A DNA stretch of 64,000 nt from Candidatus Bathyarchaeota archaeon (GCA_963780185.1 CAWABA010000001.1:64001-128000), one strand, 5' to 3'; shown: positions 6,615 through 55,368, numbered from the stretch's first letter. Translations and numbers: made by a program. The notes: generated from the sequence alone by a model not told the origin.

Positions 6615-8084
6615 GTGAAGGCTCACGTAGTACTTGCAAATCCACCTTATCCAGAAGATGTGCCGCAAGCCGTCTTCATCCCGCTCGGCATCAGCTACCT
6701 GGTCGCGGTGCTTGAGCAAGACGGGTACGAAGTCGACGTGGTTGACTGCCAAGTTGCCAAACTCAGCCAGAAAGATTTGGAGGACAAGTTCAGAAGCCTC
6801 AAAGCCGACATCGTTGGTGCTACAGCTGCAACCGTCACTTACTTCCCCGCCCTGCAAGTCCTAAAAGCAGCCAAAGCCGCCCTGCCCAACTGCGTAACCA
6901 TGATTGGCGGACCACACGTCACGGTTTTGGACGAACGCACCTTCACAGACAGCTCAGACGTCGACATTGTGGTGCGGGGCGAAGGCGAACAAACTATGCT
7001 TGAGCTTGCACGCTTAGTATCCGACGGCAACCTGAAGGGCCTTGGCGAGGTTGCAGGCATCACATTCAAGCGGAACGGGCAAATCTTCCGCACCCCTGAC
7101 AGAACCTTCTTGGAAGATATTGATACGCTTCCTTACCCGGCGCACAAGCACTTTGACGTAAGCCGTTACCGAATCAACGGGAAACTTTACATGCCTATCA
7201 TCACCAGCCGCGGGTGCCCATTCAACTGCGCCTTCTGCTTGGCATCCAAAATGTGCGGCAAAGGCTTTAGGGCACGAAACCCCAAAAAAGTCGTCGACGA
7301 ACTTGAATGGCTAAGAGACACGTTTGGGGCAGGAGCCTTCGCTTTCTACGACGACACATTCACCTCCGACGTGCCGCGGGCAATCGCCATCTGCGACGAA
7401 ATGAAAGCAAGAGGATTCGACATGCCGTGGGATTGCCGAACGCGGGTAGACAAAGTCTCCAAGCCTCTGCTGGACAAGCTTAGGAGCACAAACTGCCAAC
7501 TCATCCATTTCGGCGTCGAGTCAGGCAGCCAACAAATGCTCAACCTCATGCGCAAAGGCACCACAGTTGAGCAGAACGCCGGCGCGATAAAGCTGGCTAA
7601 AGAATCAGACATCCTTGTCGCAATATCCCTTGTCATCGGCTACCCAACCGAAACACCTGAAATGCTCAAGCAAACCGCAGACTTCATCCGCAAAACCAAG
7701 CCTGACTACGTTTACATGTGCGAAGCCGTTCCGTACCCTGGCACTCTGCTTTACGATTACGTGAAGGAGTTGGGGTTGGAGTTTTCGGAAAACTGGAACC
7801 TGTACCATGAGCAAATGCAAGTCTTCAAAAACACTTTGCTGCCGCTTGAGAAGCTGGAGCAAACCAAAAAATCAGTCTATGACAGCATCTTCACGCCTAC
7901 GTATTACCTGCGGATGAGGCAGAGAGGAGATTTTCACAGTCAAATCATGGCTCGTATGGCGCTGAATCATCTTGTCTGGAAGTACAGGGCTACAAGATGG
8001 GCGTTTAGGCAACTGGGTAAAGTTAGACCAGTCAAGAAAAGCCCAGGCGGACACAGTACGCCAAGCAAAGACCAGCAAGACTAA
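6615..8084 (+). CDS. Cobalamin-dependent radical SAM enzyme (#1)
   Basis: NPPYP...PLGISYL, GGPHVT, VRGEGE, SRGCPFNCAFC, FGVESGS, PYPGT. Start at GTG 6615; the longer ORF from 6339 reads through the repeat. Confidence 0.9.
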   Translation: MKAHVVLANPPYPEDVPQAVFIPLGISYLVAVLEQDGYEVDVVDCQVAKLSQKDLEDKFRSLKADIVGATAATVTYFPALQVLKAAKAALPNCVTMIGGPHVTVLDERTFTDSSDVDIVVRGEGEQTMLELARLVSDGNLKGLGEVAGITFKRNGQIFRTPDRTFLEDIDTLPYPAHKHFDVSRYRINGKLYMPIITSRGCPFNCAFCLASKMCGKGFRARNPKKVVDELEWLRDTFGAGAFAFYDDTFTSDVPRAIAICDEMKARGFDMPWDCRTRVDKVSKPLLDKLRSTNCQLIHFGVESGSQQMLNLMRKGTTVEQNAGAIKLAKESDILVAISLVIGYPTETPEMLKQTADFIRKTKPDYVYMCEAVPYPGTLLYDYVKELGLEFSENWNLYHEQMQVFKNTLLPLEKLEQTKKSVYDSIFTPTYYLRMRQRGDFHSQIMARMALNHLVWKYRATRWAFRQLGKVRPVKKSPGGHSTPSKDQQD

Positions 8085-8122
8085 AAAATCAGCGGCAGAG
8101 GCAAACAGCCAACTTTTGGCAT

Positions 8123-10762
8123 TTACTGTGGCGCTGTTGCAGCAGCCGATGTTTCTTGAGTTTTCTTTCTGTTTGCATAGCTTGCCCCAAAGAGTGCGAT
8201 GAGGGCGACGGCGGCGATAACGGCGACTACTATTACTATGTCGTGTCCCATGGCAACGTTGTCTGTCGACGCAGGGGCAGACGCTTGGGCGCTGAAGCCT
8301 TCGGAGAAGCAGTAAATGTTCCAGTCGTTGCATCCGATGTACAGCATGCCGTCAGCTATGGTTGGCGAGGACCAGCTGCTGGAGGGCGTGTAGCCAGTGG
8401 TGATTCTTTCGCCGTTTTTGGTTGTATCCAAGATGAGGATGTGGCGTTCGCTGGTTGCCAAATAGATTTTCCCGTCAGCGTAGGAAGGCGAAACGTAAAG
8501 TTCGTCGCCTGTGTAGGCGCTCCAAACCACGTGTCCGTTGGTTGCGTTGAGGCAAACTATGTTGAAGATGTCGAGGATGTAGAGGTTGCCGTCCACGTAA
8601 ATCGGGGAGGAAACGATGAATTCGGTGGCTCTGGTGTTGATGAAGCTCCATACAAGCTTGCCCGTCTGAGCGTTCACGGCGTAGTAAGCTCCGAAGTCAG
8701 AGGCTGCAAACACCATGCCTGCTGCAACTGAGGGAGAACCAAGCATCTCTGTGCCTCCGAGGAACGAGTGCAAATAAGGAATCGTGAAGTTCCACATAAC
8801 CTGCCCCGAAGCTGCGTCCAGTTTGAAGAGCATTCCGGTTGACGGCTGCTGTGCAGTGAAGTAGACGGCGCCATCCGAGAAGGCTGGTGAGCCCTCGATT
8901 GGTCCGCCCGCAGGAGTCTTCCAAACCACCGCGCCCGTGTCCGCGTTCAACGCGTATAGGTTGCCGTCTAAGGAGCCGATGTAAACCATGCCAGCCGAAA
9001 CCACGGGTGAGGAGGTCAGCATCAAGTTGGCGTATGTGTAATGCAGGTTGCTGCCGACGTAGGTGTGCCAGTTGAGTGCGCCGTGGTCAGCGCTTAAGCA
9101 GTAAACGTAGCCGTCGTCACTTTCAACGTAAACCAAACCGTTTACAACAGCAGGAGAATCTTCAATCGAGCCTCCGGTAGCAAACTTCCAGATGAGCCTT
9201 CCGCTCAACGCATCAAGGGCATAAACGTTCTTGTCCTGTGAACCCGCATAAACCACTCCGTTGACAAGGGACGGCGAAGAAATAACTGACCCGTCGGTTG
9301 TAAACTTCCATGCCACCGTAAGGTTCGAAGGACCCACAGAGGCGGTGGAAGAATGCGATGCGTCAGCCCTAAACATCGTCCAATTGCTAACAACTGAGGA
9401 TTCAATCGGGATCAGCTGGGGCGTCGGCGTCGCCGTGGCAGCTGGGGTGGGGGTCGGAGAACTGGAAGGCGTCGACACCGGAGTGCCGCCGGATCCTATC
9501 GCCCACAGTTCGTCGTTTGTTGAGTACTCTGTTCCTGATGTTGTGTCAACGGCGGAGGTCACTTGGCCTGGGATGATGTACAAGTTTCCGTACGCAACTA
9601 TGGCGGATTCCCTTGGAGCCAGCGCTTCAATTGGAAGCGTCCAGATGACGTTGCCGTTATAGGCGTTTAAGCACGCGAATTGGGAAATTTGTGCGGGACC
9701 ATTGTATGCGGCATGTTGGCCTGTGGTAAGGTAGATTTTTCCGTCTGCAACGGTGGGCATTCCTGGCCACATGAAGTCGGTGTCTGGGCTTCTGTATTTC
9801 CATTGTAGGGCGCCGGTTTTTTCGTTCAAAGCGTACAGGTACCCGTCTTTGTTCATTTCGTAAACGGTTCCGTAGGCGATGGATGGTCCCGTTGTGAAGT
9901 ATCCGTTGGGGTCGGATGGTGGCGTGTATGTCCACATGATTTTGCCGTCGGCAGCGTTGAAGCAGTACATGGTGTTGTCGTCTGTTCCACCTCTGAAGAA
10001 GAAGCCGTCAGAGTAGGCGCCGTCAAAAATCATCGGTCCCTTCGTAAGCGTGTCCCAAACGATTGCACCCGTCGAGGCATTAAGCGCCAACTGCTGGTTT
10101 TCAAAGGAGCCTGCGAAAACTAAGCCGTCGCCGACTGTTGTTCCGATGCCTGCTTGGCCTCCACCTGGAATGTAGGCTGTCCATGCCACGGTGGGTGGTT
10201 TTGATGGGTCAGCGAAGTTCCAGGCGATGATGTAGGAGTTGTCTTTTACGTAGAACATTTTTGTTTCGGGGCTGTAGACGTTGGAGGTGAAGATTCCTGT
10301 GTCAGCGCAGAACGAGGTGCTGGTCCAAAGGATTTTGCCTGTGGATGGGTCAAGACAGCTGCCTTCCACCACCAAGTGGGAAGGATCGATTTCGTAGGCT
10401 ATTGGCCACGTCTTATTGAGCGGAATTATGGTGCTCCACGCAATTTGCCCAGCTTGGTTTACGGCGACAAGGGAGGTGTTGGTTCCGACGAAGATTAGTC
10501 CGTCGAAGGCTGTTAGGTCCGGTTGTATGCCGGGTATATTGGCTTTCCAAAGTACGCTGGAAGTGCTGGGGGCTGGTCCCGCTGAGTAACGGGTAAATGC
10601 TTCGTTTCCTTGGAATTGTGGCCAGTCATACTGATTCAAATTTGAATTTGTGCTGTTGCTTGCCTGAGCTTTCGCATTGATCTGCAAAGTTGAAATTGAC
10701 GCGAAAAATGACGAAGCAACAAGTACTGTGAGAATAGCTATAACTAAGATTTTTTTGAGAAT
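8123..10762 (-). CDS. Secreted, membrane-anchored double PQQ-like (BamB-type) beta-propeller protein
   Basis: WPQFQGN and WTMFRAD domain starts, many SSP.V..G.VY.GS.D..YAL.A.TG...W blades, P/T linker and C-terminal TM helix. The frame extends upstream of the ORF start (10687) through a signal peptide. Confidence 0.85.
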   Translation of the reverse strand: MLKKILVIAILTVLVASSFFASISTLQINAKAQASNSTNSNLNQYDWPQFQGNEAFTRYSAGPAPSTSSVLWKANIPGIQPDLTAFDGLIFVGTNTSLVAVNQAGQIAWSTIIPLNKTWPIAYEIDPSHLVVEGSCLDPSTGKILWTSTSFCADTGIFTSNVYSPETKMFYVKDNSYIIAWNFADPSKPPTVAWTAYIPGGGQAGIGTTVGDGLVFAGSFENQQLALNASTGAIVWDTLTKGPMIFDGAYSDGFFFRGGTDDNTMYCFNAADGKIMWTYTPPSDPNGYFTTGPSIAYGTVYEMNKDGYLYALNEKTGALQWKYRSPDTDFMWPGMPTVADGKIYLTTGQHAAYNGPAQISQFACLNAYNGNVIWTLPIEALAPRESAIVAYGNLYIIPGQVTSAVDTTSGTEYSTNDELWAIGSGGTPVSTPSSSPTPTPAATATPTPQLIPIESSVVSNWTMFRADASHSSTASVGPSNLTVAWKFTTDGSVISSPSLVNGVVYAGSQDKNVYALDALSGRLIWKFATGGSIEDSPAVVNGLVYVESDDGYVYCLSADHGALNWHTYVGSNLHYTYANLMLTSSPVVSAGMVYIGSLDGNLYALNADTGAVVWKTPAGGPIEGSPAFSDGAVYFTAQQPSTGMLFKLDAASGQVMWNFTIPYLHSFLGGTEMLGSPSVAAGMVFAASDFGAYYAVNAQTGKLVWSFINTRATEFIVSSPIYVDGNLYILDIFNIVCLNATNGHVVWSAYTGDELYVSPSYADGKIYLATSERHILILDTTKNGERITTGYTPSSSWSSPTIADGMLYIGCNDWNIYCFSEGFSAQASAPASTDNVAMGHDIVIVVAVIAAVALIALFGASYANRKKTQETSAAATAPQ

Positions 10763-10992: not shown

Positions 10993-12090
10993 ATGGGCGA
11001 GAGGGTGGATTTTGGCTTGACGAATAAAGGTCCTTTACTTATGACTTCTTGGAGGGCAACAGGCGCATGTAACGCCCGCTGCAAATACTGCAACGTCGAC
11101 GCCAACGGCTCCAAAGCCCCCAGGGAACTCACAACTCAAGAAGCCTTCCACCTTGTGGATGAAGTGGCAAAGTTCGGCGTCCGCTGGTTCGGCATCAAAG
11201 GCGGCGAACCACTCACACGCCCAGACATCTTTGAAATCACCAAATACGCCAAAAGCAAAGGCCTAAACGTTTGCCTGCTCACCAACGGCGCCTTCGTCGA
11301 CGGCTCCATCTACGACAACCTCGTCAGAGACCAAATCTGGACCAGCGTCAGCATCGACGGACCTGAAGAAATCAACGATCAACTCCGCGGCAAAGGCAGC
11401 TACCGCAAGGCGTTGGCCGCCATCGAGAAACTCAGCAAGGGCAAAATCCTCAACGGCTTAGCCTGCGCCATAACCACCATAAACTACCAGCATCTTGACC
11501 ATGTCTGCGAGTTGGCGGAGAAGTACCACGCGAACTTCGTCTGGTTCAACCATCTTGTCCCCAGCGGGAGAGCCAAGGAAATGGCTGACCTTACCCCCTC
11601 GCCTGAACAGTATGAGTGGGTGCTCAACCACATTTGGGACCTCACCGAAAAATACGAGGGCAAATTCGAAATCCACGTTCACTGCCCCCACTTTGCCCGC
11701 GTCGTCAAAATGCGCGGCATCCCAAACTTCGATGAATGGTACGAGCACAAGTTCCACGGCAAATGCACCTACTTCGCTTTCGGCGGCTACGTTTCCGTCA
11801 CGGAGAACGGCGACCTCATCCCATGCTTCTACACGGACCTCACACCCACCGAGCACCAGCGGCTGGGCAACATCCGAAACAAATCGTTGCAGGATGCATG
11901 GAAAGATGTCAAAGCCTCACCGTTCTACAGCAGCTTCCAAGACCGCAACCTACTCAAGGGCAAATGCGGAGTATGCGAGTACCGTGAAATCTGCGGAGGA
12001 TGCAGAAACCGCGCGTACGCTTACACAGGCGACATGTACGCTGAGGACCCTGCATGCGTTTACATCCCTGAAAGCCTGCGCAAGAAGTAG
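10993..12090 (+). CDS. Radical SAM/SPASM protein, AhbD/NirJ-like
   Basis: CNARCKYC, GGEPL, SIDG; C-terminal GKCGVCEYREICGGCRNRAY...DPAC SPASM cysteines. Confidence 0.85.
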   Translation: MGERVDFGLTNKGPLLMTSWRATGACNARCKYCNVDANGSKAPRELTTQEAFHLVDEVAKFGVRWFGIKGGEPLTRPDIFEITKYAKSKGLNVCLLTNGAFVDGSIYDNLVRDQIWTSVSIDGPEEINDQLRGKGSYRKALAAIEKLSKGKILNGLACAITTINYQHLDHVCELAEKYHANFVWFNHLVPSGRAKEMADLTPSPEQYEWVLNHIWDLTEKYEGKFEIHVHCPHFARVVKMRGIPNFDEWYEHKFHGKCTYFAFGGYVSVTENGDLIPCFYTDLTPTEHQRLGNIRNKSLQDAWKDVKASPFYSSFQDRNLLKGKCGVCEYREICGGCRNRAYAYTGDMYAEDPACVYIPESLRKK

Positions 12091-12159: not shown

Positions 12160-14437
12160 ATGAAAGCAGCCGCCTTTGTGTTCTGACTGTGCTGTTTTTG
12201 GCTTCAGCCATTTTGGCAAGCGTTGCCTCCGCAGAACAGCCCAGCGGCAGGTGCGTGGCCAATGTTTCACGGTGACCTCAACGCATTCGGGCGCTTCAAA
12301 TTCTCAGGCGTCCGAAGACGAACCAGACTCTGTGGAAATTTAATACGGGCGGTCAAGTGGATTCGCCCACTGTTGTCGGCGGCGTGGTTTACGTTGGCTC
12401 ATTTGACCACAAAATCTACGCTTTTAACGCTTCCAACGGCAGCGGAATTGTGGGGTTCACTTACGGGCGGAATCGTGATTTCTCGTCCCGCGGTTGTAGA
12501 CGGCGTGGTTTACGTGGGTTCAGAGGACCATAACCTCTACGCCTTGGACGCTCGAAACGGCGTTCAACTGTGGAATTACACCGCGGGATACTATGTTGAT
12601 TGCGACCCCGCTGTCGCCAACGGGGTAGTTTACTTTGGCTCCGAAGACCACAACGTCTACGCCGTCAACGCCGCAACAGGCGCTTACATATGGAACTACA
12701 CGACTGGAAACAAAATCATGATGTCCTCCCCCACAGTTAGCAACGGAATAGTTTACATCGGCTCAGAAGACAACAAAATCTACGCCCTAAACGCATCCAA
12801 CGGCGCCTTAATTTGGAGTTACACAACAGGCGGCCAAGTGGCTTCTTCTCCAGCCGTCAGCAACGGCGTAGTGTACGTGGGCTCACGACGATGGCACCCT
12901 TTACGCGTTAAATGCTGACAGCGGCAAATCAATCTGGAACTTCACAACTGGAGCAGCCATCTACTCTTCCCCCTGCGTAGGCAACGGATTAGTCTACGTG
13001 GGTTCAACAGACACCAAAGTTTACGCATTAAATGCCGCAAACGGAAAATCCGTTTGGAAATTCGCAACGGGCGCGGCAGTAGCTTCTTCTCCAACCTTTG
13101 ACGGCGGCGTGGTTTACGTCGGGTCAGAAAACAGCATAGTTTACGCCTTTGACGCTTCAAACGGCGGTTTGCTTGTGGAACTACACGACTGGGGACATGG
13201 TTATTTCCCATCCTGCAGTGGCTCAAGGCGTGGTTTATGTTGGCGGTTGGGACGGCAAACTTTACGCCTTAAACGCTGCAGACGGCAAGCTATGTTTGGA
13301 GTTTTGCGACTGGCGGCGAGATTGATTCTTCCCCGACCGTGTCTGGCGGCTTAGTGTATGTTGGTTCCCATGACGGCACAGTGTACGCTTTGAATGCTTC
13401 CACGGGAATGGTTGGCTACAACTTGGAGATGCATAACAACGTTGTTTGGAGCTACACGACCGAGGGCATGATTATGTTTTCTTCGCCGCGGTTGCCGACG
13501 GCAAAGTTTACGTGGGCTCCTACGACGACAACGTTTACGCTTTGAACGCTTTGACAGGCGCTTTGATTTGGAGCTTCAAAACGGGTGACTCAGTGGTTTC
13601 TTCGCCTGCAGTGGAAAACGGCGTGGTCTATGTTGGCTCGGAAGACCATAAAATCTACGCTTTAAACGCCTCCGACGGCAAGCTTGATATGGCAGTTCAC
13701 CACTGGCGGCCAGATAACGGTGTCTTCTCCCGCAGTCTACGACGGCAAAGTCTACATTGGCTCAAACGACGAAAACGTCTACTGCCTTAAACGCTTCAAA
13801 CGGAACCCTCATGTGGAAGTACGCGACAGACGGCTACGTGGTTTCTTCCCCTGCCGTGGCAAACGGGCATGGTTTACGTGGGCTCATACGACCACAAAAT
13901 TTACGCTTTAAACGCCTTAAGCGGCAAGCTTGTTTGGAAATATGCCACAGGCGGAGGCGTTGCATCGTCGCCTGCATTAGCCGACGGCTTAGTCTACGTT
14001 GGCTCGGCAGATGACAAGGTTTATGCTTTGGATGCATCCGACGGCAAAGCTCATGTGGAGCTACATAACGGGCGGGCAAGTTGCGTCTTCGCCTGCTGTT
14101 TCAAACGGAATTGTTTACGTCGGCTCATACGACGGCAACGTTTATGCTCTTAACGCCAAAACAGGCGCATAAATCTGGAGCTACGCAACTGGAGAGGAAT
14201 GGTGGTTTCTTCGCCAGCCATGGCCGACAACGCCGTTTACGTTGGCTCATACAACAACATGCTCTATGCCTTCGGCTCACTCATTCAACCACAACATCGG
14301 TTCAAACGGCATACGCAGCTGAACAATTTGCTGTCGTTGCAGTGGTTTTAGCGGCGATTGTCACTGCCGCAACGCTGGTTGCTACCAGATTTCTCAAGAA
14401 AAAAGGAAAAAAATTCACAGCGTCATGTTTTGAGTGA
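12160..14437 (+). CDS. PQQ-like beta-propeller repeat surface protein, heavily frameshifted
   Basis: Signal-like start at ATG 12160, WPMFHGD, many tandem SSPAV.NG.VYVGS.D.KIYALNA blades scattered over all three + frames, and C-terminal TM plus KKKGKK. Confidence 0.75.
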
Positions 14438-14451
14438 GAATGCATGAAGGT

Positions 14452-15194
14452 CTATTTTTCGACGAGTTCAGCTTTGGTTATGTCGAGAACCGCGAAGCCT
14501 TTCCTTTTCACCTTGCGGCTTTGAACGATTTTGAGGCGCTTCTTAAACAACGGGGCATCGGTGACAAGCGTGTGGAACTCGATATTGCTTACCGCCGTTC
14601 CCGTTTCCTTGCTTTTGCTGCGAATCGCCGCCAAAAAGTCGGCATCCACTTTTCGCCCAAGCCAGTCTTCACTCAAAAAGTCAGTGTCAACAACGATTAA
14701 CGTTGCTTCAAACCCGCTCTGGGTGAAAGCCTCGATGTTCGCGTCTTCGCCGATGCCTTTGAGCGGAAAAATCATCTTCACCTTTAGCTCTTCACAGATT
14801 GGGGTAAGCATCGACATGTGGACTGCCGCTTGGTCTTCTTCGGCGCCCCACGCAATTCCCTCAACAGGCGGATTCAGGCTGCTAACCGTCGCCTTGAACT
14901 GGTCAACAAACCCCATCATCGAAACTTCAGGCTGAACAATCGGCAAACCCAACGCCTTCGCCTGCAACGCGATGATTTCCGGGTTAACTTCATGCGGAAC
15001 ATCCTTGTAGGGCTTCATCCTCGACAGCTTCATCAGAACCGAACCCGCCAAACTTTTGATTCTGTTAGGTTTGGGATGCGGAGGTTCTTTGAATATGAAG
15101 TTTATGAGTGTAGTAACGTTGTTTCCTTCCGAAATGGCGCCTGAGCAAGCTAAGTAGCTGTCTTTGCCGCCAGTCCACATTGAGGCAACTCGCA
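14452..15194 (-). CDS. Dph6-like (diphthine-ammonia ligase family) PP-loop ATPase, paralog 1
   Basis: VASMWTGGKDS PP-loop, QAKALGLP, WLGRKVD, EFHTLVTDAPLFKKRL. Confidence 0.8.
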
Positions 15195-15382
15195 AAATCT
15201 TCCCCGCAAAAAGCGTCAACCCCACCTTATAAAAACGTAACGGTGGAAGGGTATTTTTAAATAAAAATACTGAAATTCTCAATATTAAATTGGGTTTAAA
15301 AGAAAATGAACGTTAGAACGTTGAGACATTGAGACTAAACTTAGCTTCATAATCTTAAGGAATCTTGGCATTTTTCAGTCGT

Positions 15383-15985
15383 TCAGTCTTTTTGTTCCTT
15401 TTTTGAATCGCAGTTCCAATCAAACCGCTTCTCAAAATTAGACCGTAAATTCTTATCATCTTTAAGCTGTTTAACATAAGTCTCAAAATGCTTTTTTAAT
15501 TCCAAAACAAGCGTATGAGGGTTAACAATAAGTCTTTCCCCTTCTTCAGTTGGAGATATAGGTGGGAAACCTTCACCCAAAAGCATAATGTCGCTTTCAG
15601 TTAAGCCATGATGGTAAAGACCGCACCTAACATTATAATACATCTTTTCAGGAATCCAAGGATACTGTTTACATAATTCTGGGAAAACCATCTTTAATCC
15701 TTCAGCAAAATATTTGCGTGCTCCGCCAATCTTACAAGATCCATCTCTGTACTTGGCAATCATTTCAAAATAACTCATGAGTATGTCTAAAGTGGCATAA
15801 CCTGAGCCTACAATCTGCACTATTATAATTGTTCCATTATTTATTTTTACACCGTTAATAACCATATCCGCAATATCCAATTGCCATCCAGTAACTCTTT
15901 CATAAAAGATTTGTATTTTATTATCAAGTGTAAGCGCCTCTGGGAAATCGCTCCTTTTATGAAACGGTGTTATCATGTAATCCAA
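15383..15985 (-). CDS. Hypothetical AT-rich protein with HEPN-like Rx4H motif
   Basis: All-helical-looking 200 aa ORF containing YYNVRCGLYHHG. Confidence 0.55.
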   Translation of the reverse strand: MDYMITPFHKRSDFPEALTLDNKIQIFYERVTGWQLDIADMVINGVKINNGTIIIVQIVGSGYATLDILMSYFEMIAKYRDGSCKIGGARKYFAEGLKMVFPELCKQYPWIPEKMYYNVRCGLYHHGLTESDIMLLGEGFPPISPTEEGERLIVNPHTLVLELKKHFETYVKQLKDDKNLRSNFEKRFDWNCDSKKEQKD

Positions 15986-16091
15986 TATTATCCCATAGCA
16001 CCAAATTCATTGTTTGCAGATTTAAGACTTATCTCTAAGTTTCTAACCCTTGATTTAATCAATTGATTAATAGGAATTCGTGGAATGATTT

Positions 16092-16385
16092 TTAGGCATT
16101 TAAGATTCTTGCAACCTCTTCTGCTGGGATTGTTCTCACTGTCTCGTTTGTGATTGCGTTTTTGACATATACCAACCCATAAAGTGAAATATGCTTAGAT
16201 TGAGACTTTTGAAGACGGAAACCTGTTGGTAGATTCAATCTTTTTCTAAGTTCTTTCAAGTTAGGGTCAGTTGAGCCACGTTTACTTTTGGTGAAAAGGG
16301 TTATGTGCTTCTTTGCGGCGACTGCCGCTAATCTAAGTCTACCATCTGGCGGAAGTTTTATTTCACAGGTAGGCTCTTTTTTCAC
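16092..16385 (-). CDS. Small basic hypothetical protein
   Basis: 97 aa K/R-rich ORF co-oriented with neighbours in the AT-rich island. Confidence 0.45.
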   Translation of the reverse strand: MKKEPTCEIKLPPDGRLRLAAVAAKKHITLFTKSKRGSTDPNLKELRKRLNLPTGFRLQKSQSKHISLYGLVYVKNAITNETVRTIPAEEVARILNA

Positions 16386-16437
16386 ACCAAATCCCTTCTG
16401 ATAATTTCATTATTGTATGCGATTCAGTTTTAAGCTT

Positions 16438-16842
16438 TTACTGCTTGATTATATTACCGAAATTGAGGTTTTTGGGAAATGTTATTTTTATGCCTTCTTT
16501 TTGGTTGAAATCAAACCTTATAGAATTTACAATACTACAAAAAAACTCTAAGTCTCTAACGATGTAAATCCAGTCATTTGAGAGCTCTTTGGTTAGGGTG
16601 TGGTATAGATTCATTTTATTTTGCAATGTTATTGAGAATTTAACCACTTTATCCAAGTCATAATTCTTAGAATCAGAATAAGAAGCGATTGTATTAACCA
16701 ACTGCAAAATAGTTTGAATATTTTCCTTTATCACCAAAGAATTCTTTGGGTCATTCTCTAACCTGAGAATTTGCAGAGTTGCCCCACATATCAACTCTTT
16801 ATCCTTAACAAGCATCAAGCGTTCTGTTTCGGAAATCTGCAT
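16438..16842 (-). CDS. Hypothetical protein
   Basis: 134 aa ATG-start ORF in the AT-rich island; no recognised motif. Confidence 0.5.
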   Translation of the reverse strand: MQISETERLMLVKDKELICGATLQILRLENDPKNSLVIKENIQTILQLVNTIASYSDSKNYDLDKVVKFSITLQNKMNLYHTLTKELSNDWIYIVRDLEFFCSIVNSIRFDFNQKEGIKITFPKNLNFGNIIKQ

Positions 16843-16878
16843 AGCGGTATCTTTACAGTTTCAACCTTTTAGTTTTTG

Positions 16879-19469: not shown

Positions 19470-19604
19470 GATGTTTACGGCTCCACGAATTACCTCAAGA
19501 AAACACAAGATGCTTTTTTTCAATCCTAAAGCGACAGCAGCGATTTTTACGTAATCTTTATTATGGTATCGAGCCGTTTTAAAGGTAAATTCGAGGGAAC
19601 TTGG

Positions 19605-38223: not shown

Positions 38224-38276
38224 GCCGAGCACTTCTTAAGCCATAAGTACCCTTGGGGTTTGATTAAAACTTTGCA

Positions 38277-41917: not shown

Positions 41918-42023
41918 TTTCTGCTTCACAGCTCACTTTACCCCTCAAAAAGAACCGTTTCATGCTTAAACATTTCGCATTTTAGAAGCGAAACCGAACA
42001 AAGGAAGATTTTGGAAGAATTTT

Positions 42024-46404: not shown

Positions 46405-47220
46405 TTGCTTCAAGACCCAACGCTTAAAGAAAAAATTCATCAGGCAAACATATCCGTTCACCATCTTGAAGCACAATACTATGAACTTCTTCACCCCGAA
46501 GTGTACTCTAAACAGGAACAAAAAAGAATAACAGCTAAACTGAAAATGATCGACAAGCTTGTGACAGATAACCGCAAGATGGCTCTGGACTTTGGAGCAG
46601 GCACAGGCAACCTGACAGGCAAGCTTTTGCACTTGGGCTACACGGTTACAGCTGTAGATATCTCGCAGGAAATGTGCGGGATCCTGCAGAAAAAATACTT
46701 TGCCTACATGCAAAGCAAAAAGTTAACCGTGGTTTGCTCGCCTATTGAGGAGTTGACTTTTGAAGAGGGGCAATTTGACTTAATCACATGTTACTCTGTG
46801 CTGCATCATTTGCCCGACTACGTCGGCGCCCTCCGTTGCCTCTCTGTTTTTCTTAAGGAAGGCGGAGTCATCTACCTTGACCATGAAGCATCCCCTTTCT
46901 ACTGGAAAAATGAGCCAACCATGCTTGCAAGCCTTGTGAAAGGAATCTATTTGCATTCAAACCCGCTGTTAAACAGCTTGTACTTTCAAATGACTGGTTT
47001 GAGGGTTCCTTCAATCGATTATGAGTTGTCGGATTATTGGCATAAAAAAGAGCATGCGCTAGACCACGGCAGCATCGGGCAAGTGTTCAAAGACGAAAAC
47101 TACGAGTTTTCAACACGCACAGACTACTATGAAACCAGCACTTGGATTCCCAGCCCACTATCCATCATTTACCGTCTGTTGTGCAGCCCCGAAATGAGCT
47201 GTTGGATAGCCAAAAAGTAG
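46405..47220 (+). CDS. Class I SAM-dependent methyltransferase
   Basis: ALDFGAGTG, AVDISQEM, FDLITCYSVLHH, LKEGG. Confidence 0.9.
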   Translation: MLQDPTLKEKIHQANISVHHLEAQYYELLHPEVYSKQEQKRITAKLKMIDKLVTDNRKMALDFGAGTGNLTGKLLHLGYTVTAVDISQEMCGILQKKYFAYMQSKKLTVVCSPIEELTFEEGQFDLITCYSVLHHLPDYVGALRCLSVFLKEGGVIYLDHEASPFYWKNEPTMLASLVKGIYLHSNPLLNSLYFQMTGLRVPSIDYELSDYWHKKEHALDHGSIGQVFKDENYEFSTRTDYYETSTWIPSPLSIIYRLLCSPEMSCWIAKK

Positions 47221-48625
47221 CTAGGCGATTCCTTCGGTTTTGTGTGCGCCGGGGTTTAGTCTGCGTTTGGCAAAGTTTATGGCGCCTTCACGTCTGACCC
47301 GCTTGATTATCTGTTTGGGTGAGCGGTGGAAATCTATGAAGAATCTTCGCTGAACTGCAAGCAGCGAGTTGTAGTCCCACTCTTTGGTTTTCACCGCGAG
47401 CAAGAAGTCGTCGAGTTGCGTGTAGCTTTTTGAGTCTAAGAGTTCTTGGTAGAGTCGGCTGTCCGGGTTAGCTATGAAGACGTTGAAAATGCACCAGTCG
47501 GGGCTCAAGCTTCTTGGCAAACTTTGAGCGACATCTCCATGTCCTTGAGCGTTTCGTCGGGAACCCCAAGCATAAACGAGCAAGCCGTCTGTATCCCGAG
47601 TTTGCGGCAAAGCCTAAAAGCGGTTTCTATCTGCTCAAGCGTTGTGTTTCGCCCGATGCGCTGCAGAACCCGTTGCGAACCCGATTCCACGCCAAACCAA
47701 ATCGTCTTGCAACCTGCTTTCTTCATGGTCTCCAAAAGTTCTTGATTAACTAAATCGACGCGGGTGTCGCATACCCACTCTAAATCCAGCTTGTTCTCAA
47801 CCATCAAGTTGCATAGTTGGACGGTTTGGTTTTTTCTGAGGGTAAAGTTGTCGTTGATGAAGTAGATTCCTTTGGTGCCGTACCTGCTTTGCAAATCCTT
47901 AATTTCGCCGATGACCCGCTGCGGACTGAAACCTCGGCAGATGTTTCCCCAGAGCTTTTTGGTTTCGCAGAAGCCGCAGTTGTAGACGCATCCCCGCGAG
48001 ATGCTCATGATGTCTGCGGGTTTAACGCCTAAGTATTCAACTGTCCTGTCGTAGAGCTCCAACTGCAGAAGGTGTCTTGCTGGGTAGGGGATTTCATCCA
48101 TGTTTTCGATGAATTTAGGCGGGTTCTTGATGTTTACGCCCAGATGCTTGCAGGCGACGCCGGGTATCGTCAAGGCGGCGGGTTCGTCGCCGTTTGTTAT
48201 GCAGGTGGCAAGCTGGGTCATTGCCGCGTTCGCCTTCGCCCATGACGACGTAGTCGATTTCGGGGTTGTCCAGCAGGCTGTCGGGTACGTAGCTGGCGTG
48301 CCATCCGCCGACGACGATTTTGCAGTCTGGGCAGGGTTTGTTTGATGGCTTTTGCGGTTTCTATGCAGCGTGCGTAGGTTGCTGAGCCGCAGGTGATGCC
48401 GACGATTTGCGGGTTAAGCTTAGACACAAACTGCTTGACTTCGTCAATGGGCTTCTTTTGCAGGTAGTTGTCGAGCATCTGCACCTCAAAGCCCGCTTTC
48501 TCAAGAGCCGCAGCAACATACATCAAGCCTATCGGAGGCAGCCGTTTGCCATGGTACCACGCGCTGTTTTCGGGAGGAGCAGTAGTCATCAAAAGAATCA
48601 AATCAGCAACCCCCAACCCAAACAC
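47221..48625 (-). CDS. Cobalamin-dependent radical SAM enzyme (#6, frameshifted into three ORFs)
   Basis: LLMTTAPPE...RLPPIGLMYVAA, SRGCVYNCGFC, FGVESGS, DWCIFNVFIANP. Confidence 0.85.
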
Positions 48626-48759: not shown

Positions 48760-49000
48760 CCATATTTGTGATGAGGTTTTGGTCACAAATACTAGACCCC
48801 CTCCCTCGGTCGTTTGTATCCATCTTTACGTTGGTATTTTGAGGTAAAAATGGGGTACCCTCCCCATGTTGGCGGCTTTTGCTTGGGGCTTGTTTCGGGT
48901 TGCTTTTTTGGTTTAGGTTGTAATTCTGTTGTGGGCTTGGATTGGAAAGGCGTGGGAAAGAGGCGTTTTTGTCTTGCAGTTTTGTAATATTTCAAAAGTT
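48760..49000 (-). repeat. Dispersed intergenic element, copy 5 of 5, with a duplicated 3' module
   Basis: Palindrome at 48980-48997; core 48820-49000 has GGGGAGGGTACCCCATTTTTAC; a second module at 48760-48811 reads ACCGAGGGAGGGGGTCTAGTATTT...CACAAATATGG. Confidence 0.88.
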
Positions 49001-49098
49001 CATGGGCTCGGCGTTTTGCAATAAAGCACCCGGAAAGTCTACTCCCGTTGACGCCATTGCCGGTTGTCTTTAGACTCAGAAACTGTCACAACCCAATT

Positions 49099-50115: not shown

Positions 50116-50853
50116 GTGAAAGTTGTTGTTCACTGGAGCGGAGGAAAAGAATGCTGCTTAGCCTACCACAAAGTCATCGCGCAGGGGCATCAAGTTGCTT
50201 GCCTTCTCAGCTTCGAATACCAGCGTCCCTACGTCTTCCACAGTTTCCAGCTGATGCAGCTTCAATCCCAAACGTTGGCGACACCGCTTAAGGTTGTGCG
50301 GATAAAGAAGCCTTACGAGGACATTCTTGGCGCCCTTGGCAAGCTGAAGGATGAGGCGGGCATCGAAGGCATCGTTACAGGCGACATAGCTGGTGCAGGA
50401 TGCGCCATCGTGCACAGCAGCTACTATGAGAGTATGGCTAAACAGTTGGGGTTAGCTTTCTTGATGCCTAACGAAGGCGACACATACGAAGTGCTAAAAG
50501 ACACCGTGGACAGAGGTCTAAGACCCGTCTTGAACTGCGTCAACACCAACTTTTTCGGCGAAGAGTGGCTGGGACGCAAACTTGACCCCGAATCCGTCAA
50601 GGAACTCAAAGCGTTAGCCGACGAAAAAGGCATCGACGTAGCCAGCGAAGACGGGCAAGGCTACCACAGCACCGTGGTTGAAGCGCCGCTATTCAAGGAA
50701 TCCTTAGTCATCGACAAGTTCAAAACCAAGAAAAAGAAGGAAAAATCGAAGAATTGGAAACGAAACTGGCTTTACATGGACATCAAAGAATGCCATCTGA
50801 CACCCGAAAGAAACACCCAACATAAGATTCCCTATCCGTTTTTGAGCGCCTAA
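50116..50853 (+). CDS. Dph6-like PP-loop ATPase, paralog 2
   Basis: VHWSGGKEC, EGIVTGDI, WLGRKLD, GYHSTVVEAPLFK. Confidence 0.82.
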   Translation: MKVVVHWSGGKECCLAYHKVIAQGHQVACLLSFEYQRPYVFHSFQLMQLQSQTLATPLKVVRIKKPYEDILGALGKLKDEAGIEGIVTGDIAGAGCAIVHSSYYESMAKQLGLAFLMPNEGDTYEVLKDTVDRGLRPVLNCVNTNFFGEEWLGRKLDPESVKELKALADEKGIDVASEDGQGYHSTVVEAPLFKESLVIDKFKTKKKKEKSKNWKRNWLYMDIKECHLTPERNTQHKIPYPFLSA

Positions 50854-50957
50854 CTGTCCTGCCGAGTTTGTTAAATCGGCGTCTGACAGAAAATTGTGTG
50901 TTTTTGCATAAAGTAAATGAACCCCAAGGCATAAACTCTATTGCTTCAGGGAAGAAC

Positions 50958-52402
50958 ATGAAAACTCGCATTACTCTTGTCAATCCGCCGTACCCTGCAG
51001 GTTCAGCCATCAGCATCCGCCTTTCATGCCGCTGGGCATCGGGTACTTGGGCGCTGTTTTGTACAAGAACCATTTTAACGTTAACGTGATTGATTGCCAA
51101 GCGCAAAAAATCACTCATAGCCGATTCGAGAGGAAATCGCAAAGTTCAGCCTGACATAGTCGGAGTCACATGCACCACGCTCACCTACAAGTCAGCGCTC
51201 AGAATCGTGAAGATAGCTAAGGAAGTTTGGCCAAATTGCATAATTGCAATCGGGGGACCCCACGTTACTTTCTGGGATGAAAAGGCGCTGCAAGAAGGAA
51301 CCCTCAATCGACGTCGTTGTCCGAAGGGAGGGCGAAGAACACGATTCTTGAGCTTGCACAAAGAGTCGAAAACGGCCAACCTTACTTCGACCTTGTCGGC
51401 ACCACTTGCAGAAACGGCGCGGCAACAGTGAAAAACCCTGACCGACCTCTTCTGGAAACCTAGACAGCTTGCCTTACCCAGCGCTTCACCTTTGGGAGCA
51501 CACCGCGAACCTGCGCAAGTACGGAACAATTCCATATCCCGTGATGACCAGTCGAGGATGCGTTTTCTGGTGCAACTTTTGCACGACTGTGCGAATGTTC
51601 GGCAGAAGATACCGCATGCGCAGCACAAAAAGCGTAGTCGACGAATTGGAGTATCTGCACAGAAACTATTATGCAAGCCAATTCACGTTTTACGACGACG
51701 CATTCACCGTAGATCAACCGCGAACCATGCAGATATGCGACGAAATCATCCGTAGAGGACTAAAAATCAAGTGGGATTGCGAAACCCGCGTTGACATGGT
51801 GTCCAAAGAACTCTTCGTCAAGATGCGTGAGGCAGGCTGCATAGCGGTTTGGTTCGGTGTTGAGTCAGGTTCAAAGAAGCTTCTAACAAGCATGGGCAAA
51901 GGGTTCTCGCTTGCCCAGACAAGACGGGCTTTCAAATGGGCGAAAGAGGCGGGGTTAATGACGGTTGCAGGCGTCATTTTGGGTTTTCCAGGCGAAACCA
52001 AAGAGACCGCTTGGGAAACAATCCGATTCGTGAAGGAGCTAAACCCCAACGACGTGGGCTTCTACATAGCGACGCCTTACCCGGGAACACCGCATGTACG
52101 AGGAAGTGAAAGCCAACGGCACGCTCAAAGTAACTGACTTCGACAAATACGACACCGCAACCCCAACCTTTGAAATCCCAAACATGACCATGCAGGAGCT
52201 ATCGCAGCTACGAGAACAAGCCTTCCAAAGCTTCTACCTTAGCCCAGCATACTTCGTCAGCGCACTTGGCATGTTTAGGCAAGGCAAAATGTGGGGTTTA
52301 GGCGCAACCCGACTGATTCTGGCTCATGCAAGACGGGCAATCAGAGCCAAGAGCAAACAGCATCATGAAGTAAAGAAGAACTTTGCAGGAGAACAACGCT
52401 AA
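50958..52402 (+). CDS. Cobalamin-dependent radical SAM enzyme (#7, several frameshifts)
   Basis: MKTRITLVNPPYP, GGPHVTFWD, SRGCVFWCNFC, FGVESGS, DVGFYIATPYPGT. Confidence 0.85.
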
Positions 52403-53775
52403 ATTGATTCTGCTCATGACCACCGCGCCGCCGGAAAAGTCGCCTTGGGGCATGCCTGGGAAGACTTCCTCCGCTGGGTTTGGCTTATGTCGCGGCGGTT
52501 CTGGAGAAAGGCGGCTTTCAGGTTGAAATCTACGACAACTACCTGCTTGAGCGACCCATCGAAGAAGTCAAATCCGAAATAAAAAAGCGGTCGCCGGAAA
52601 TCGTCGGCATCACCTGCAATTCCCTGTCTTATGAGCGTTGCGTCGAATTGGCTAAAGCAGTCAAAGAGGCGGTTCCTTCCTGCCGCGTCGTCGTCGGCGG
52701 TCCCCACGCTTCGTACATGCCTCAGACCCTTCTGCAGCACCCGGAAATCGATTATGTGGTTGTCGGCGAGGGTGAACAAGCGATGGCTCAGCTTGCCTCC
52801 AGCATAGCGAAAGGCGAAAAAGCCTCTGCGGCGGCGCAGATTCCTGGGGTAGCATGCATGGTCGGCGGCGAAATTGTGAAGAGTGCGCCTCAATTCATCA
52901 GCGATTTGGATACGGTTCCTTTTCCCGCTCGTCACCTGCTGCCGATGCGGATGTACCACCGTGAACTAAGCTATTTGACGGTTAAACCTGTTGACACCAT
53001 GAGCGTACACCGCGGTTGCCCCTATCGGTGCGCTTACTGCGAAACCAGGGAGCTTTGGGGGTCAGCTTGCCGAGCGTTTTCGCCTCAGCGAGTCATAGAC
53101 GAAATCCAGCATATGACCCAGACCTACGGCACACGGGGCATCTACTTTGTCGGCGACAACTTTACCATCAACAAAAAACGCACCTCCGAGCTGTGCCGCC
53201 TCATAAAAAGCAGCAAGCTGGACTTGAAATGGACCTGCGAAACCAGAGCCGACCTCATCAACAAAGAGCTGCTGACTGAAATGAAGTCCGCCGGGTGCCA
53301 AACCATGTTTTTCGGCGTCGAATCGGGTTCACCCAAAATCCAGCAGAAGCTCAACAAGGGCATTGATTTGCAGGAGGTTGTGAAGGCGTTTGAGCTTTGC
53401 AGAGAAGTGGGTGTGCAGACTGTGACTTCTTTTATGCTTGGGATTCCAGGCGAAACCGTCGCCGACATGAATGAAACCTTCAACTTCGCCAAAAAGCTGA
53501 AGGCGGATTGGTGCCAATTCAACATTTACATCGCTTGCCCAGGCAGCGTGCTCTACGACGAAGTAGTAAGCAAAGGCCTCTACGACCAAATGTACGGCTA
53601 CCTCGCGCGAGTAAAAACCGACCAGTTCGACTACGACATGCTCACGAAGATTCAGAGGGATTTTCAGCGAAGCTTCCAGAAATCCGCCGCCCAAAACTTC
53701 ATGCGGGTGGTAAAGCGGGACGGCTTAGGCAGCGCAGTCAAAAAAGGCGCATCAATGGTTTTTCGCCGCTCATAA
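52383..53775 (+). CDS. Cobalamin-dependent radical SAM enzyme (#8, one frameshift near 52460)
   Basis: LILLMTTAPPE...RLPPLGLAYVAA, GGPHAS, HRGCPYRCAYC, FGVESGS; close paralog of #6. Confidence 0.88.
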
Positions 53776-53931
53776 AAAGGGATTTATTCACCCGAAAAGG
53801 CGTTCAAACTTTAGCGTGGTTTCTTGTTTTAGCATTTGCACGCGAATGCGCCGACTTTGACGCGAAACTAGACAACTATATTAACGCGTGGAGTTAATCT
53901 AACTAAAATATTACAAATTTAGGGGAGAAAA

Positions 53932-55368
53932 ATGAAAACTCACGTAACCCTTGTCAACCCACCCTACCCCGGCCACTCATTTCCGCATCCGCCCTTCCCG
54001 CCGCTGGGTCTCGGCTACGTCGCCGCTGTTTTAGAGCAGAACAAATTTGTCATTGACGTCGCCGACTGCCTCGTGATGGGCACAGGCTACGAAGGTTTGA
54101 AGCAGGAACTCGGCAAACGGAAACCAGACATTGTCGGCTGCACATGCAACACGCTCACCTACAAGTCTGCGCTCCTGTGTTTGAAAGCCGCTAAGGAAGC
54201 CTTGCCGAACTGCGTAACCGTCATCGGCGGACACCACGTAACCTTTGAAGACGAGCAGGCGCTAAAAGATGCCGCTCACTTGGACGTGGTTATCAGGAAC
54301 GAAGGTGAATACACCATGCTGGAGCTTGCTCAGCGAGTGGAAGCAGGCAAAGATTACCGCGACGTAATCGGCACAACCGTGCGAAGCAAAGACGGCGCAA
54401 TCGTGAGGAACCCTAAAAGAGCCCACATCGAAAACCTCGATGAACTTCCGTTCCCAGCCCGTCACATGTGGCCGCTGGAAGCCACTTCAAAGTACGGCAG
54501 AGTAATGTTTGACATCATAGCAAGCCGCGGCTGCTCCTTCGCCTGTGACTTCTGCATAGAAGTACGAATGCATGGACAAAAATTCCGAAAACGCAGCGTG
54601 GAGAACGTCTGCGCCGAACTTGAACAATGCAAAAAAGACTTCGGCGCCACCTGGTTCAGCTTTGTCGACGCCGCATTCACAGTAGACCAACAATTCACCT
54701 CTGATTTATGCGACGAAATCATCAAACGAAACCTCAACATCAACTGGGTTGCCGGAACCCGCGTTGACATGGTTACCAAAGAACTTCTGCAAAAGATGGC
54801 TCAGGCAGGCTGCAAATCCATGTGGTACGGCGTCGAATCCGGCGCACAAAACGTCCTCAACGAAATGCGCAAAGGCATCACGTTGGAGCAAACCAAGAAG
54901 GCGTTCGCGTGGACTGTTGAGGCGGGAATGAAGCCTGACCCCAACGTTGTGTTGGGTTTCCCAGGTGAAACCAAAGAGTCCGCGTGGGCAACCATAAAGC
55001 TCTGTCAGGAAATCGCCCCATACTACATGGCTTCCTACACCATAGCCACACCGTACCCAGGCACGCCACTCTACTACCAGGTTAAAGAGAAGGGCTATCT
55101 GAAAGACACAGACTTCGACCACTACGACACCGCTACACCCACCTTCGAAACCCCCACAATGACGATTCAAGAACTCCGCAAGCTCCGCGCCAAAGCGTGG
55201 TCAAGCTTCTACGAGCGACCAAGCTACATCCGCGCCATGTTCAAAAAAGGATTCATCTACGGGTTAGCCGCGATGAAAGCAGCCGTCACCTACAGGATCA
55301 TAGACCTCAGAATCGCCCTCCAACCCAACAGGGTACCGCCGAAGCCACCGTCAAAAAGCCACTTCTAA
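53932..55368 (+). CDS. Cobalamin-dependent radical SAM enzyme (#9)
   Basis: NPPYP...PLGLGYVAA, GGHHVT, SRGCSFACDFC, YGVESG, TPYPGT. Confidence 0.92.
   Translation: MKTHVTLVNPPYPGHSFPHPPFPPLGLGYVAAVLEQNKFVIDVADCLVMGTGYEGLKQELGKRKPDIVGCTCNTLTYKSALLCLKAAKEALPNCVTVIGGHHVTFEDEQALKDAAHLDVVIRNEGEYTMLELAQRVEAGKDYRDVIGTTVRSKDGAIVRNPKRAHIENLDELPFPARHMWPLEATSKYGRVMFDIIASRGCSFACDFCIEVRMHGQKFRKRSVENVCAELEQCKKDFGATWFSFVDAAFTVDQQFTSDLCDEIIKRNLNINWVAGTRVDMVTKELLQKMAQAGCKSMWYGVESGAQNVLNEMRKGITLEQTKKAFAWTVEAGMKPDPNVVLGFPGETKESAWATIKLCQEIAPYYMASYTIATPYPGTPLYYQVKEKGYLKDTDFDHYDTATPTFETPTMTIQELRKLRAKAWSSFYERPSYIRAMFKKGFIYGLAAMKAAVTYRIIDLRIALQPNRVPPKPPSKSHF

Follow-up and report, generated by a model that had tools for sequence, protein, structure and literature searches.

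The closest described relatives of the locus reported here are the gms-gmm(-grs) gene clusters, in which the GMGT synthase Gms, a relative of AhbD with an N-terminal extension, bridges the chains of glycerol dialkyl glycerol tetraethers (GDGTs), and an adjoining B12-binding radical S-adenosylmethionine (SAM) enzyme, the MoeK5-like GMGT methylase Gmm, methylates them (Garcia et al. 2024, PMC11214058). Our subject is a block of radical SAM (rSAM) genes in Candidatus Bathyarchaeota archaeon, centered on a 64,000-nucleotide stretch (GCA_963780185.1 CAWABA010000001.1:64001-128000) that we analysed at its full length and call the window. Many Bathyarchaeota carry several copies of a non-canonical Gmm2 (PMC11214058), partly on one scaffold, which may differ in position or substrate (10.1101/2023.10.20.563219). 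The block resembles the gms-gmm(-grs) clusters and the putative Gmm2/Hgm2 enzymes in linking a Gms with the N-terminal domain to BchE/MoeK5-type B12-rSAMs, and multiple copies per Bathyarchaeota genome, partly on one scaffold, were already stated there (PMC11214058). It differs in holding six B12-rSAMs from a sister group of Gmm plus three others, a second Tes and a second UbiA; it further adds an AglB-like pair and a second set of cobamide loop genes, and has no Grs-like gene inside. Our best explanation, held with moderate confidence, is that the block would be a gms-gmm locus that has expanded, tailors tetraether lipids, and is self-sufficient in cobamide, methyl groups and electrons.

Several other systems bear on this comparison. 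Cgm, Pgm and Ted (Ted-Hgs) are Gmm homologues of differing activity and specificity on tetraether tails, Ted being a desaturase from a Bathyarchaeon (Garcia et al. 2025, 10.1101/2025.10.20.683597); the length threshold in their collection was 495-500 aa, compared with 450-490 aa for the proteins of the window, and the two groups are compared here by description only. Mechanisms of Tes, Gmm and Cds are treated in PMC13459092. For Bathy-6, a group described as frequent on land where plant matter decays without oxygen, Nesbo et al. (2024, PMC11697101) reported 7-20 COG1032 genes per genome and conserved neighbours of mtgA-mtgC; they proposed lignin metabolism, and the sections covered do not connect the genes with tailoring of lipids or cobamides. 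Bathyarchaeota also dominate the Gms homologues of peat and marine metagenomes (PMC11214058; 10.1101/2023.10.20.563219). The enzyme families, the wealth of rSAMs in Bathy-6 and the multiple copies of Gmm2 are already in print. We did not find the combination of second Tes, UbiA and cobamide sets with an rSAM block in the literature, with some supplements lying outside the search.

Radical SAM genes are concentrated in one block

The window corresponds to C1:64001-128000 of a 2.75-Mb genome (G000) that has 13 contigs and is 93% complete; other G-numbers denote related Bathyarchaeia genomes and L-numbers the DNA stretches inspected as neighbourhoods. An earlier note on this DNA had counted twelve rSAM genes with CxxxCxxC in about 49 kb: nine B12-binding, two SPASM and one HemN-like. 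Motif and Pfam agree with that count, as twelve CxxxCxxC open reading frames (ORFs) lie within 6324-55368 and 12/12 match Pfam Radical_SAM. A thirteenth motif match at 789-1121 (-) is antisense within a 1143-aa gene and was excluded. We lettered the B12-rSAM genes a (6615-8084, +), b (18045-19469, +), c (21349-22740, +), d (36775-38232, -), e (40535-41929, -), f (47221-48601, -), g (50904-52402, +), h (52420-53775, +, start codon uncertain) and i (53932-55368, +, a paralogue of e type). The others are the SPASM genes at 10993-12090 (+) and 29630-30751 (-), both AhbD-like, and the HemN/ChuW-like gene at 19563-20905 (+). The neighbours named in the note were likewise recovered: cbiB, cobD and mtrH, a gene for a corrinoid protein, three PP-loop ligases (PF01902), an amidohydrolase and a class I methyltransferase.

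Genome-wide, 12 of the 38 CxxxCxxC ORFs of 150 aa or more fall within 1.77% of the genome, where 0.67 would be expected (P = 1.7e-12, or 1.9e-10 after scan correction), and stretches of equal length on other contigs hold at most two. Searched with tblastn, the genome has 14 BchE-type B12-rSAMs, nine of them in the window and five scattered. An even rSAM density across the genome with no conserved neighbourhood had been named as the pattern that would speak against a shared pathway; here the genes are dense only locally, and their surroundings persist in relatives. Recent tandem duplication was rejected, as identity among the paralogues of the window is 30-57% and another family holds orthologues of most of them.

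No window rSAM reached a curated NCBIfam cut-off. The B12-rSAMs fell short of those for BchE (best 255 bits against 481), HpnJ (245/578), ApyD (254/750), BzaD (149/450), PhpK (175/600) and QCMT (143/360). Nor did the SPASM and HemN-like genes pass those for AhbC, AhbD, NirJ, PqqE, HemN or ChuW/HutW, the two SPASMs scoring 224 and 198 against the AhbD cut-off of 500 and the pieces of the HemN-like gene 83 + 78 against the HutW cut-off of 400. Sequence searches of the PDB returned AprD4, TokK and one unnamed rSAM, and no more.

Three rSAM genes are frameshifted: f and g with three breaks each and the HemN-like gene with one. Since the orthologues in relatives are intact and the share of split genes is about the same outside the block (2/13) as inside (6/39), these breaks are probably assembly indels. 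Homopolymer context was uninformative as a test, the break positions being approximate.

The block contains relatives of tetraether-lipid enzymes

The window forms the middle of a conserved block of 60-90 kb, which overruns it on both sides and spans about 58-143 kb of C1. Downstream follow, in order, a GT4 glycosyltransferase, DUF362, a Gms gene (C1:130699-132126), CobY', CobS', a nucleoside diphosphate (NDP)-sugar epimerase, UbiA' (C1:134621-135514), Tes' (C1:135501-136982), DUF1616, GT2, GT4, DUF71-B12, CobT and CobS, where a prime marks the block copy (likewise for CbiB', CobD' and CbiZ'). A canonical Tes, a UbiA closer to digeranylgeranylglyceryl phosphate (DGGGP) synthase, a true Dph6, cbiB, cobD and cbiZ are located elsewhere in G000, which makes many block genes second copies.

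We searched the phylum with a single-copy Bathyarchaeia homologue, which matched in 70/201 genomes. Across 20 neighbourhoods, 19 of them outside the class, a B12-rSAM stood in tandem with a SPASM gene of 480-520 aa in 10, and the 9/19 tandems outside Bathyarchaeia have the published gms-gmm layout. One tandem SPASM protein has exactly the sequence of an accession that Dataset S2 of PMC11214058 lists as Gms, and four further Gms accessions of that dataset share its 90% cluster. The 475-aa SPASM protein of the block is 39-42% identical (E 1e-112 to 1e-117) to tandem SPASM proteins of Thermoprotei and falls in the same clade, apart from AhbD. Its N-terminal domain is also of Gms type, matching with 48 bits (E 1e-15) a profile of our own that was built from 12 gms-type proteins and stands in for COG4001, the extension of ~100 aa. 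This is the only Gms-type gene of G000. The window SPASMs at 10993 and 29630 show no Gms N-terminal extension, reach E values of 1e-34 to 1e-47, and form a separate clade. A 704-aa protein on C11 (L139:7211-9325) has an AhbD/NirJ2-like SPASM domain behind an N-terminal part of 350 aa.

Six of the B12-rSAMs group together: a, b, c, e and i form a clade with an intact orthologue of g from G003 (ultrafast bootstrap, UFBoot, 100), and this clade is sister to the Gmm1-like set holding gms-adjacent proteins (FastTree support 0.94, 92 sequences; UFBoot 63), with d, f and h outside. Gmm proper comprises clades A-C (Gmm1) and clade D (Gmm2). With a Gmm profile built from 12 gms-adjacent proteins, a, b, c, e, g and i scored 379-455 bits (c highest, at 455). 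The scores were 357-370 for f/h, 309 for d and 208-332 for the five B12-rSAMs scattered elsewhere. All nine have the Gmm-family domain content, a B12-binding domain and a CxxxCxxC rSAM domain in 400 aa or more, for f and g by way of pieces and orthologues. One criterion for Gmm is E < 1e-65 to the T. guaymasensis protein, for which seven gms-adjacent or related proteins served as stand-ins. Against these, E ranged from 1e-90 to 1e-104 for c, 1e-79 to 1e-89 for b, 1e-78 to 1e-95 for e, 1e-77 to 1e-88 for i, 1e-65 to 1e-81 for a, 1e-65 to 1e-82 for h and 1e-49 to 1e-57 for d. We infer that a, b, c, e, g and i are Gmm relatives by descent and would fall within Gmm2.

Tes' resembles Tes / GDGT-MAS (7TOL): it passes NF045702 (462 bits against 450; the canonical Tes scores 655) and in alignment keeps the Cys, Met and Tyr positions of the 7TOL metal site. 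It differs in being a diverged second copy, in an operon with a diverged UbiA and the NDP-sugar epimerase. UbiA' scores below the PRK12882 and PRK12884 cut-offs for DGGGP synthase (159/296 and 165/269), as does the presumed housekeeping UbiA (193/296 and 253/269).

The gene content, conservation and family placements given here are observed; the activities in what follows are predicted. UbiA' and Tes' would build a membrane-spanning ether lipid, both of whose chains Gms may cross-link. The six Gmm relatives might then methylate at different positions, or perform related radical chemistry as do Cgm, Pgm and Ted, presumably by the mechanism with two SAM and methylcobalamin proposed for Gmm. Sugar head groups could be added or moved by the GT2/GT4 enzymes, the epimerase and the AglB-like pair. 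The needed cobamide would be salvaged and finished by the second cbiZ/cobD/cbiB/cobY/cobS set, DUF71-B12 ligases and GHL10-like proteins. Methyl groups may come from MtrH with the small corrinoid protein, and SAM from a candidate SAM synthetase-like gene 19 kb upstream, labelled from the start of its sequence alone. Electrons could come from an RnfD-like membrane domain with a 2x[4Fe-4S] ferredoxin domain (31610-33005, +), a candidate reductant that is frameshifted here and a single ORF in relatives. Finally, either the cobamide or the lipid head groups could be the target of the remaining rSAMs, namely d, f and h, the HemN-like protein and both short SPASMs.

The note had proposed three substrates. 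Tetraether lipids are the best supported, through relatives of Gmm, Gms and Tes instead of the GrsA/B enzymes it invoked, and nothing in the block points specifically to the butanetriol (BDGT) backbones it suggested. For some genes, tailoring of a cobamide or tetrapyrrole stands as a serious competitor; that tetrapyrroles are made de novo appears unlikely, with no HemB, ThiC/BzaF or Cbi methylase found in G000. Glycans are the weakest of the three, notwithstanding the AglB-like pair within the block. A different genus, Baizosediminiarchaeum, is reported to contain BDGTs (PMC12694404, which cites Dong et al. 2025), and we found no identified BDGT synthase in the literature searched. The parts covered of PMC13331322 and PMC11868695 hold no diagnostic or contrary data on the block.

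If the proposed function is right, the block could yield new C-H methylation or desaturation enzymes and reveal where tetraether biomarkers of orphan status, methylated or bridged, come from. It provides a short list of genes, intact in relatives, for existing archaeal expression systems, and opens the way to testing whether DUF71-B12 and the GHL10-like family act in cobamide salvage.

Three rSAMs of another type, 500-550 aa long, lie on contig C6 (L134:6240-7889, L135:7277-8872 and L136:5320-6816). They are probably Grs-like because their homologues adjoin a single-copy Gmm-like gene in other Bathyarchaeia; no model confirmed this.

The block is conserved in two families

The best 80 loci for protein c were nearly all labelled Bathyarchaeia, including Ca. 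Bathycorpusculum at 75% identity. Four stretches titled as bacteria or Methanocella (L045, L051, L070 and L102) hold copies of protein c that are 75-88% identical and are probably mislabelled Bathyarchaeia. Every one of 18 genomes of the same genus had 5-14 matches (E up to 1e-40), whereas the 12 genomes examined from other families had 0-3. Among 150 members drawn from the class, protein e matched in 17/22 genomes of the window's family and 4/6 of family f7, all four from genus g26. These genomes had 2-5 matches each, the best at 55-75% identity, and elsewhere the matches were mostly single copy at 39-47%.

Synteny across related genomes, suggested in the note as a check, showed the block genes to be kept in two families with their order shuffled. 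They extend across 60-95 kb in G003, G014, G012, G001, G015, G004 and G158, are compact in G007 and G013, and are split in G008, G017 and G143. G100, which belongs to another family, has the entire set in one uninterrupted run of ~65 kb. Orthogroups f/h, d, b, c and e/g are common to both families, so the rSAM paralogues are old.

We then compared 23 genomes having the B12-rSAM expansion with 21 lacking it, chosen from the same-genus and class-wide sets. CbiB of the CbiB' type (237-257 bits) was present in 23/23 expansion genomes and 0/21 others, as was the UbiA' orthologue. Tes of the Tes' type (449-494 bits) occurred in 21/23, with partial matches at the expected place in the remaining two, and no Tes in that band was found among the 21. 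Orthologues of the block Gms (54-87% identity) were present in 23/23, while 14/21 genomes without the expansion had homologues at 41-48%.

It is also conceivable that the block has no single pathway and consists of anaerobic B12-related modules that met once and stayed linked by inheritance, each with its own substrate. The heavy shuffling, the scattering of the set over distant places in G008, G017, G001 and G143, and the kinship of the positive genomes are all consistent with this. However, the linkage has survived many rearrangements in two families, G100 is fully contiguous, and four marker paralogues are missing from none of the 23 positives. We regard this explanation as improbable.

Several observations weigh against a lipid-tailoring locus. 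The 23 positives are kin from two lineages, and their co-occurrence may amount to a single event; moreover, second Tes-family matches occur in 3/21 genomes without the expansion (G038, G049 and G146). The link to Gmm is at the level of sister groups only, with UFBoot 63 (42 of 92 sequences), and the suggested Gmm2 placement comes from a tree that contains no tested Gmm, Cgm, Pgm or Ted sequence. The six relatives retain 7-15 of 31 Gmm-diagnostic columns, for which the 2-6/31 of the scattered B12-rSAMs are low by construction. Both window SPASMs, the HemN-like gene, d, f and h fall outside the lipid clades, and UbiA' is only ~30% identical to the housekeeping UbiA. A basic amphipathic C-terminus was rejected as a lipid marker, the block enzymes being no different from the scattered ones in this respect. 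Lastly, DUF71-B12 ligase genes are gained and lost jointly with g and h, being present in G000, G003, G004 and G012 and absent from the mapped regions of G001, G014, G015 and G158. This joint pattern in eight close relatives connects a Gmm-sister enzyme with a corrinoid-linked family and favours a closer tie.

A second cobamide set and possible corrinoid tailoring

All members of archaeal cobinamide salvage (CbiZ, CobD, CbiB, CobY, CobS and CobT) are present along with DUF71-B12, a His-marked group predicted to act in B12 salvage (PMC3541065). The block differs from that system in having a second, diverged set among rSAM genes and up to four DUF71-B12 copies. CbiB' (38277-39272, -) passes TIGR00380, and CobD' (60369-61374, -), a pyridoxal phosphate-dependent decarboxylase gene with one frameshift, has an orthologue in G100 that passes TIGR01140. 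CbiB', CobD' and CobY' (in both families) and CobS' (in the window's family) group separately from the housekeeping copies in trees and share 34-44% identity with them. Close relatives were the only CbiB' homologues among the matches listed.

The genome appears to rely on cobamide salvage only, since no HemB, ThiC/BzaF or Cbi methylase was found in its 93% complete assembly, where the sole TP_methylase is Dph5. A Cbi methylase set accompanies the block in 14/23 expansion genomes and is absent from 9/23. We therefore rejected the idea that radical chemistry replaces de novo corrin synthesis, given that the block occurs both with and without these methylases and G000 has no HemB match.

The PP-loop ligases at 14452-15282 (-), 50116-50853 (+) and 56759-57505 (-) are present as the note described, but they are of DUF71-B12 type and not diphthine ligases. 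All have His in place of Glu188 of Dph6, cluster with cbiB or btu genes, and score 88-123 bits against the TIGR03679 cut-off of 197, whereas the true Dph6 on C11 has Glu at 188 and scores 270. Extra DUF71 copies were found in 28/29 CbiB-positive genomes and 0/15 CbiB-negative genomes. Four blockless genomes (G032, G035, G068 and G080) carry DUF71, AsnB-like and GHL10-like genes in ordinary btu-cbiZ-cbiB-cobS operons. From these operons and the co-occurrence of DUF71 with CbiB, the DUF71-B12, AsnB-like and GHL10-like families are cobamide-linked.

Upstream of the window, the block holds an AsnB-like synthetase, a nitrilase, two GHL10-like genes and cbiZ. A GHL10/DUF4015-like barrel protein with four conserved Cys, starting at C1:63819, has its 3' part at 2-724 (+) of the window. 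The GHL10-like protein has a predicted glycoside-hydrolase-type (GH-like) TIM barrel (pLDDT 94) resembling Cwp19 (Z 20.7, rmsd 4.1, 257 aligned) and PgaB (Z 20.0), and we consider the family a candidate for lower-ligand release in cobamide remodelling. The Cys4 barrel family recurs in ordinary cobinamide-salvage operons (L183:7753-8547 and L184:4142-5044; in G000, C1:295.8 kb and C6:852.8 kb). Salvage operons of G035, G068 and G032 include short rSAM genes of 250-284 aa (L181:10038-11651, L182:3672-5288 and L183:8648-9412).

These results raise the question of whether the corrinoid is itself the substrate, with the lipid genes linked but separate. Imported cobinamide or cobamide would be stripped by CbiZ', the amidohydrolase (Amidohydro_3; 34454-36048, +, two frameshifts), the nitrilase and GHL10-like proteins. 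The rSAMs would then alter side chains, ring periphery or lower ligand, through decarboxylation like that of AhbD or HemN or methylation like that of BzaD/E or BchQ/R. Re-amidation by DUF71-B12, AsnB-like proteins and, in one genus, CbiA would precede assembly of a new nucleotide loop by CobD'/CbiB'/CobY'/CobS'. Support comes from the full second loop-assembly set in clades of its own, the His of all window PP-loop ligases, the tracking of CbiB by extra DUF71 copies, and the salvage operons of blockless genomes. In genus g26 (three genomes mapped), the only CbiA that passes TIGR00379 sits among B12-rSAMs, and d mostly adjoins cbiB'. Tetrapyrrole enzymes are the top matches in NCBIfam for both short SPASMs and for the HemN-like gene, and BzaCDE homologues have been reported in Bathy-6 (Nesbo et al., PMC11697101). 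Yet the window B12-rSAMs score only 97-149 bits against the BzaD cut-off of 450, with d and h no higher than the others, and G000 has no ThiC/BzaF that we could find. We know of no rSAM that acts on a finished corrin ring. Cofactor supply would explain the cob set without any substrate path, and is favored by the fact that CbiB' is the sole CbiB found in 3/23 expansion genomes (G097, G140 and G170). Corrinoid tailoring further leaves the Gms, Tes' and Gmm-sister placements unexplained, and we think it unlikely as the purpose of the block, although it is the alternative we take most seriously.

The notion that DUF71 replaces a missing CbiP was not upheld. A circularly permuted protein of the GATase-CbiA family, 504-546 aa long and with the glutaminase domain first, is encoded in the de novo B12 loci of G014, G143 and G100 (L191:15859-17442, L189:13212-14726 and L187:11534-13174), and no normal CbiP was found.

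Possible glycan tailoring, methyl supply and peptide maturation

Two adjacent genes encode STT3/AglB-like GT-C membrane proteins (24622-26914, +, with a frameshift near 26690, and 26941-29340, +). Among 177635 chains their profile matches four at E up to 1 (the best at 2.7e-4), all of them STT3/AglB, and the WWDYG motif is altered in both. A further reading is glycan or head-group tailoring, wherein the rSAMs would C-methylate or ring-contract sugars, as do GenK, MoeK5, HpnJ and calditol synthase. A lipid-linked glycan made by GT2/GT4 enzymes would be moved by the AglB-like pair onto secreted beta-propeller proteins. In keeping with this, the block has five GT2/GT4 genes, of which two GT2 (one frameshifted) and the start of a GT4 lie at 62103-64000 (+), as well as the NDP-sugar epimerase, GH-like barrels and many propeller genes. 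Those in the window comprise a large protein with PQQ-type beta-propeller repeats (820-4251, +), two further PQQ-type propeller genes (8123-10687, -, and 12223-14437, +, the latter in several frameshifted pieces) and a large secreted-type protein with beta-propeller and Ig-like repeats (43558-46272, +). Blocks of relatives include an aldo-keto reductase, HpnJ is among the top profile matches, and Gmm itself is MoeK5-like. Nevertheless, the GT-C assignment is weak, propeller genes occur genome-wide (19 and 11 loci), the GH-like family tracks cobamide operons, and neither Gms nor Tes' would be needed. Tailoring of glycans is doubtful, and we place it below corrinoid tailoring.

A more elaborate possibility, and a long shot, is that the block encodes all of a second pathway for the envelope. 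A heavily methylated membrane-spanning glycolipid of a kind not yet described would be made by UbiA', Tes' and Gms together with as many as nine B12-rSAMs. Instead of finishing ordinary B12, CobD'/CbiB'/CobY'/CobS' would make an amide-aminopropanol-phosphodiester link (the chemistry of glycosylphosphatidylinositol anchors) tying a tailored corrinoid or protein to it, which the AglB-like pair would pass on to secreted beta-propeller proteins. Separately, a PIG-V-like GT-C mannosyltransferase match at 4267-5604 (E 1.5e-8) has no counterpart seen in the mapped regions of relatives.

The MtrH/MtgA-like methyltransferase (23143-24054, -; 263 bits against a cut-off of 271) and the 142-aa corrinoid-binding protein (24073-24501, -) are each single copy in G000. 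Substrate-specific O-demethylases fall in the URO-D family, of which no gene was found in G000. Because both genes are single copy and no URO-D-family gene was found, methyl supply fits better than lignin O-demethylation. B12-rSAMs of this class are biosynthetic and consume SAM, and the neighbouring genes are biosynthetic as well. Even though the two genes lie within the block, catabolism of lignin or methoxy compounds, proposed for Bathy-6 rSAMs and the MtgA-MtgC neighbourhood (PMC11697101), seems very unlikely here. Maturation of a peptide, whether of RiPP type (made by the ribosome and modified after translation) or of pyrroloquinoline quinone (PQQ) type, was also considered and set aside: no conserved precursor-like ORF was noticed among ORFs of 80 aa or more.

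Other features of the window

Some of the remaining genes are also kept in relatives. A class I SAM methyltransferase (46405-47220, +) is kept beside rSAMs of the f/h type, and a DUF4234-like membrane protein (61448-62077, -) beside cobD'. A small conserved membrane protein of no known family lies at 33255-33905 (+). There are also a small DUF1616-like membrane protein (22699-22960, -) and a double Lrp/AsnC regulator (42024-43047, -), both frameshifted. Three features are not conserved in the block: a low-GC insert at 15383-17613 (34% at 16-18 kb) with DUF5677 and ORFs of no known family, a GIY-YIG/helix-turn-helix remnant at 55490-56202, and a catalase at 57703-59214.

A non-coding repeat of ~200 nt has five copies in the window (6334-6515, 21041-21234, 29416-29570, 34009-34103 and 48775-49003) and lies upstream of several rSAM genes. 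It had no Rfam match, and we rejected it as a dedicated rSAM regulatory element, as nhmmer gave 85 whole and partial hits on 11/13 contigs. It is possibly an element resembling miniature inverted-repeat transposable elements or repetitive extragenic palindromes.

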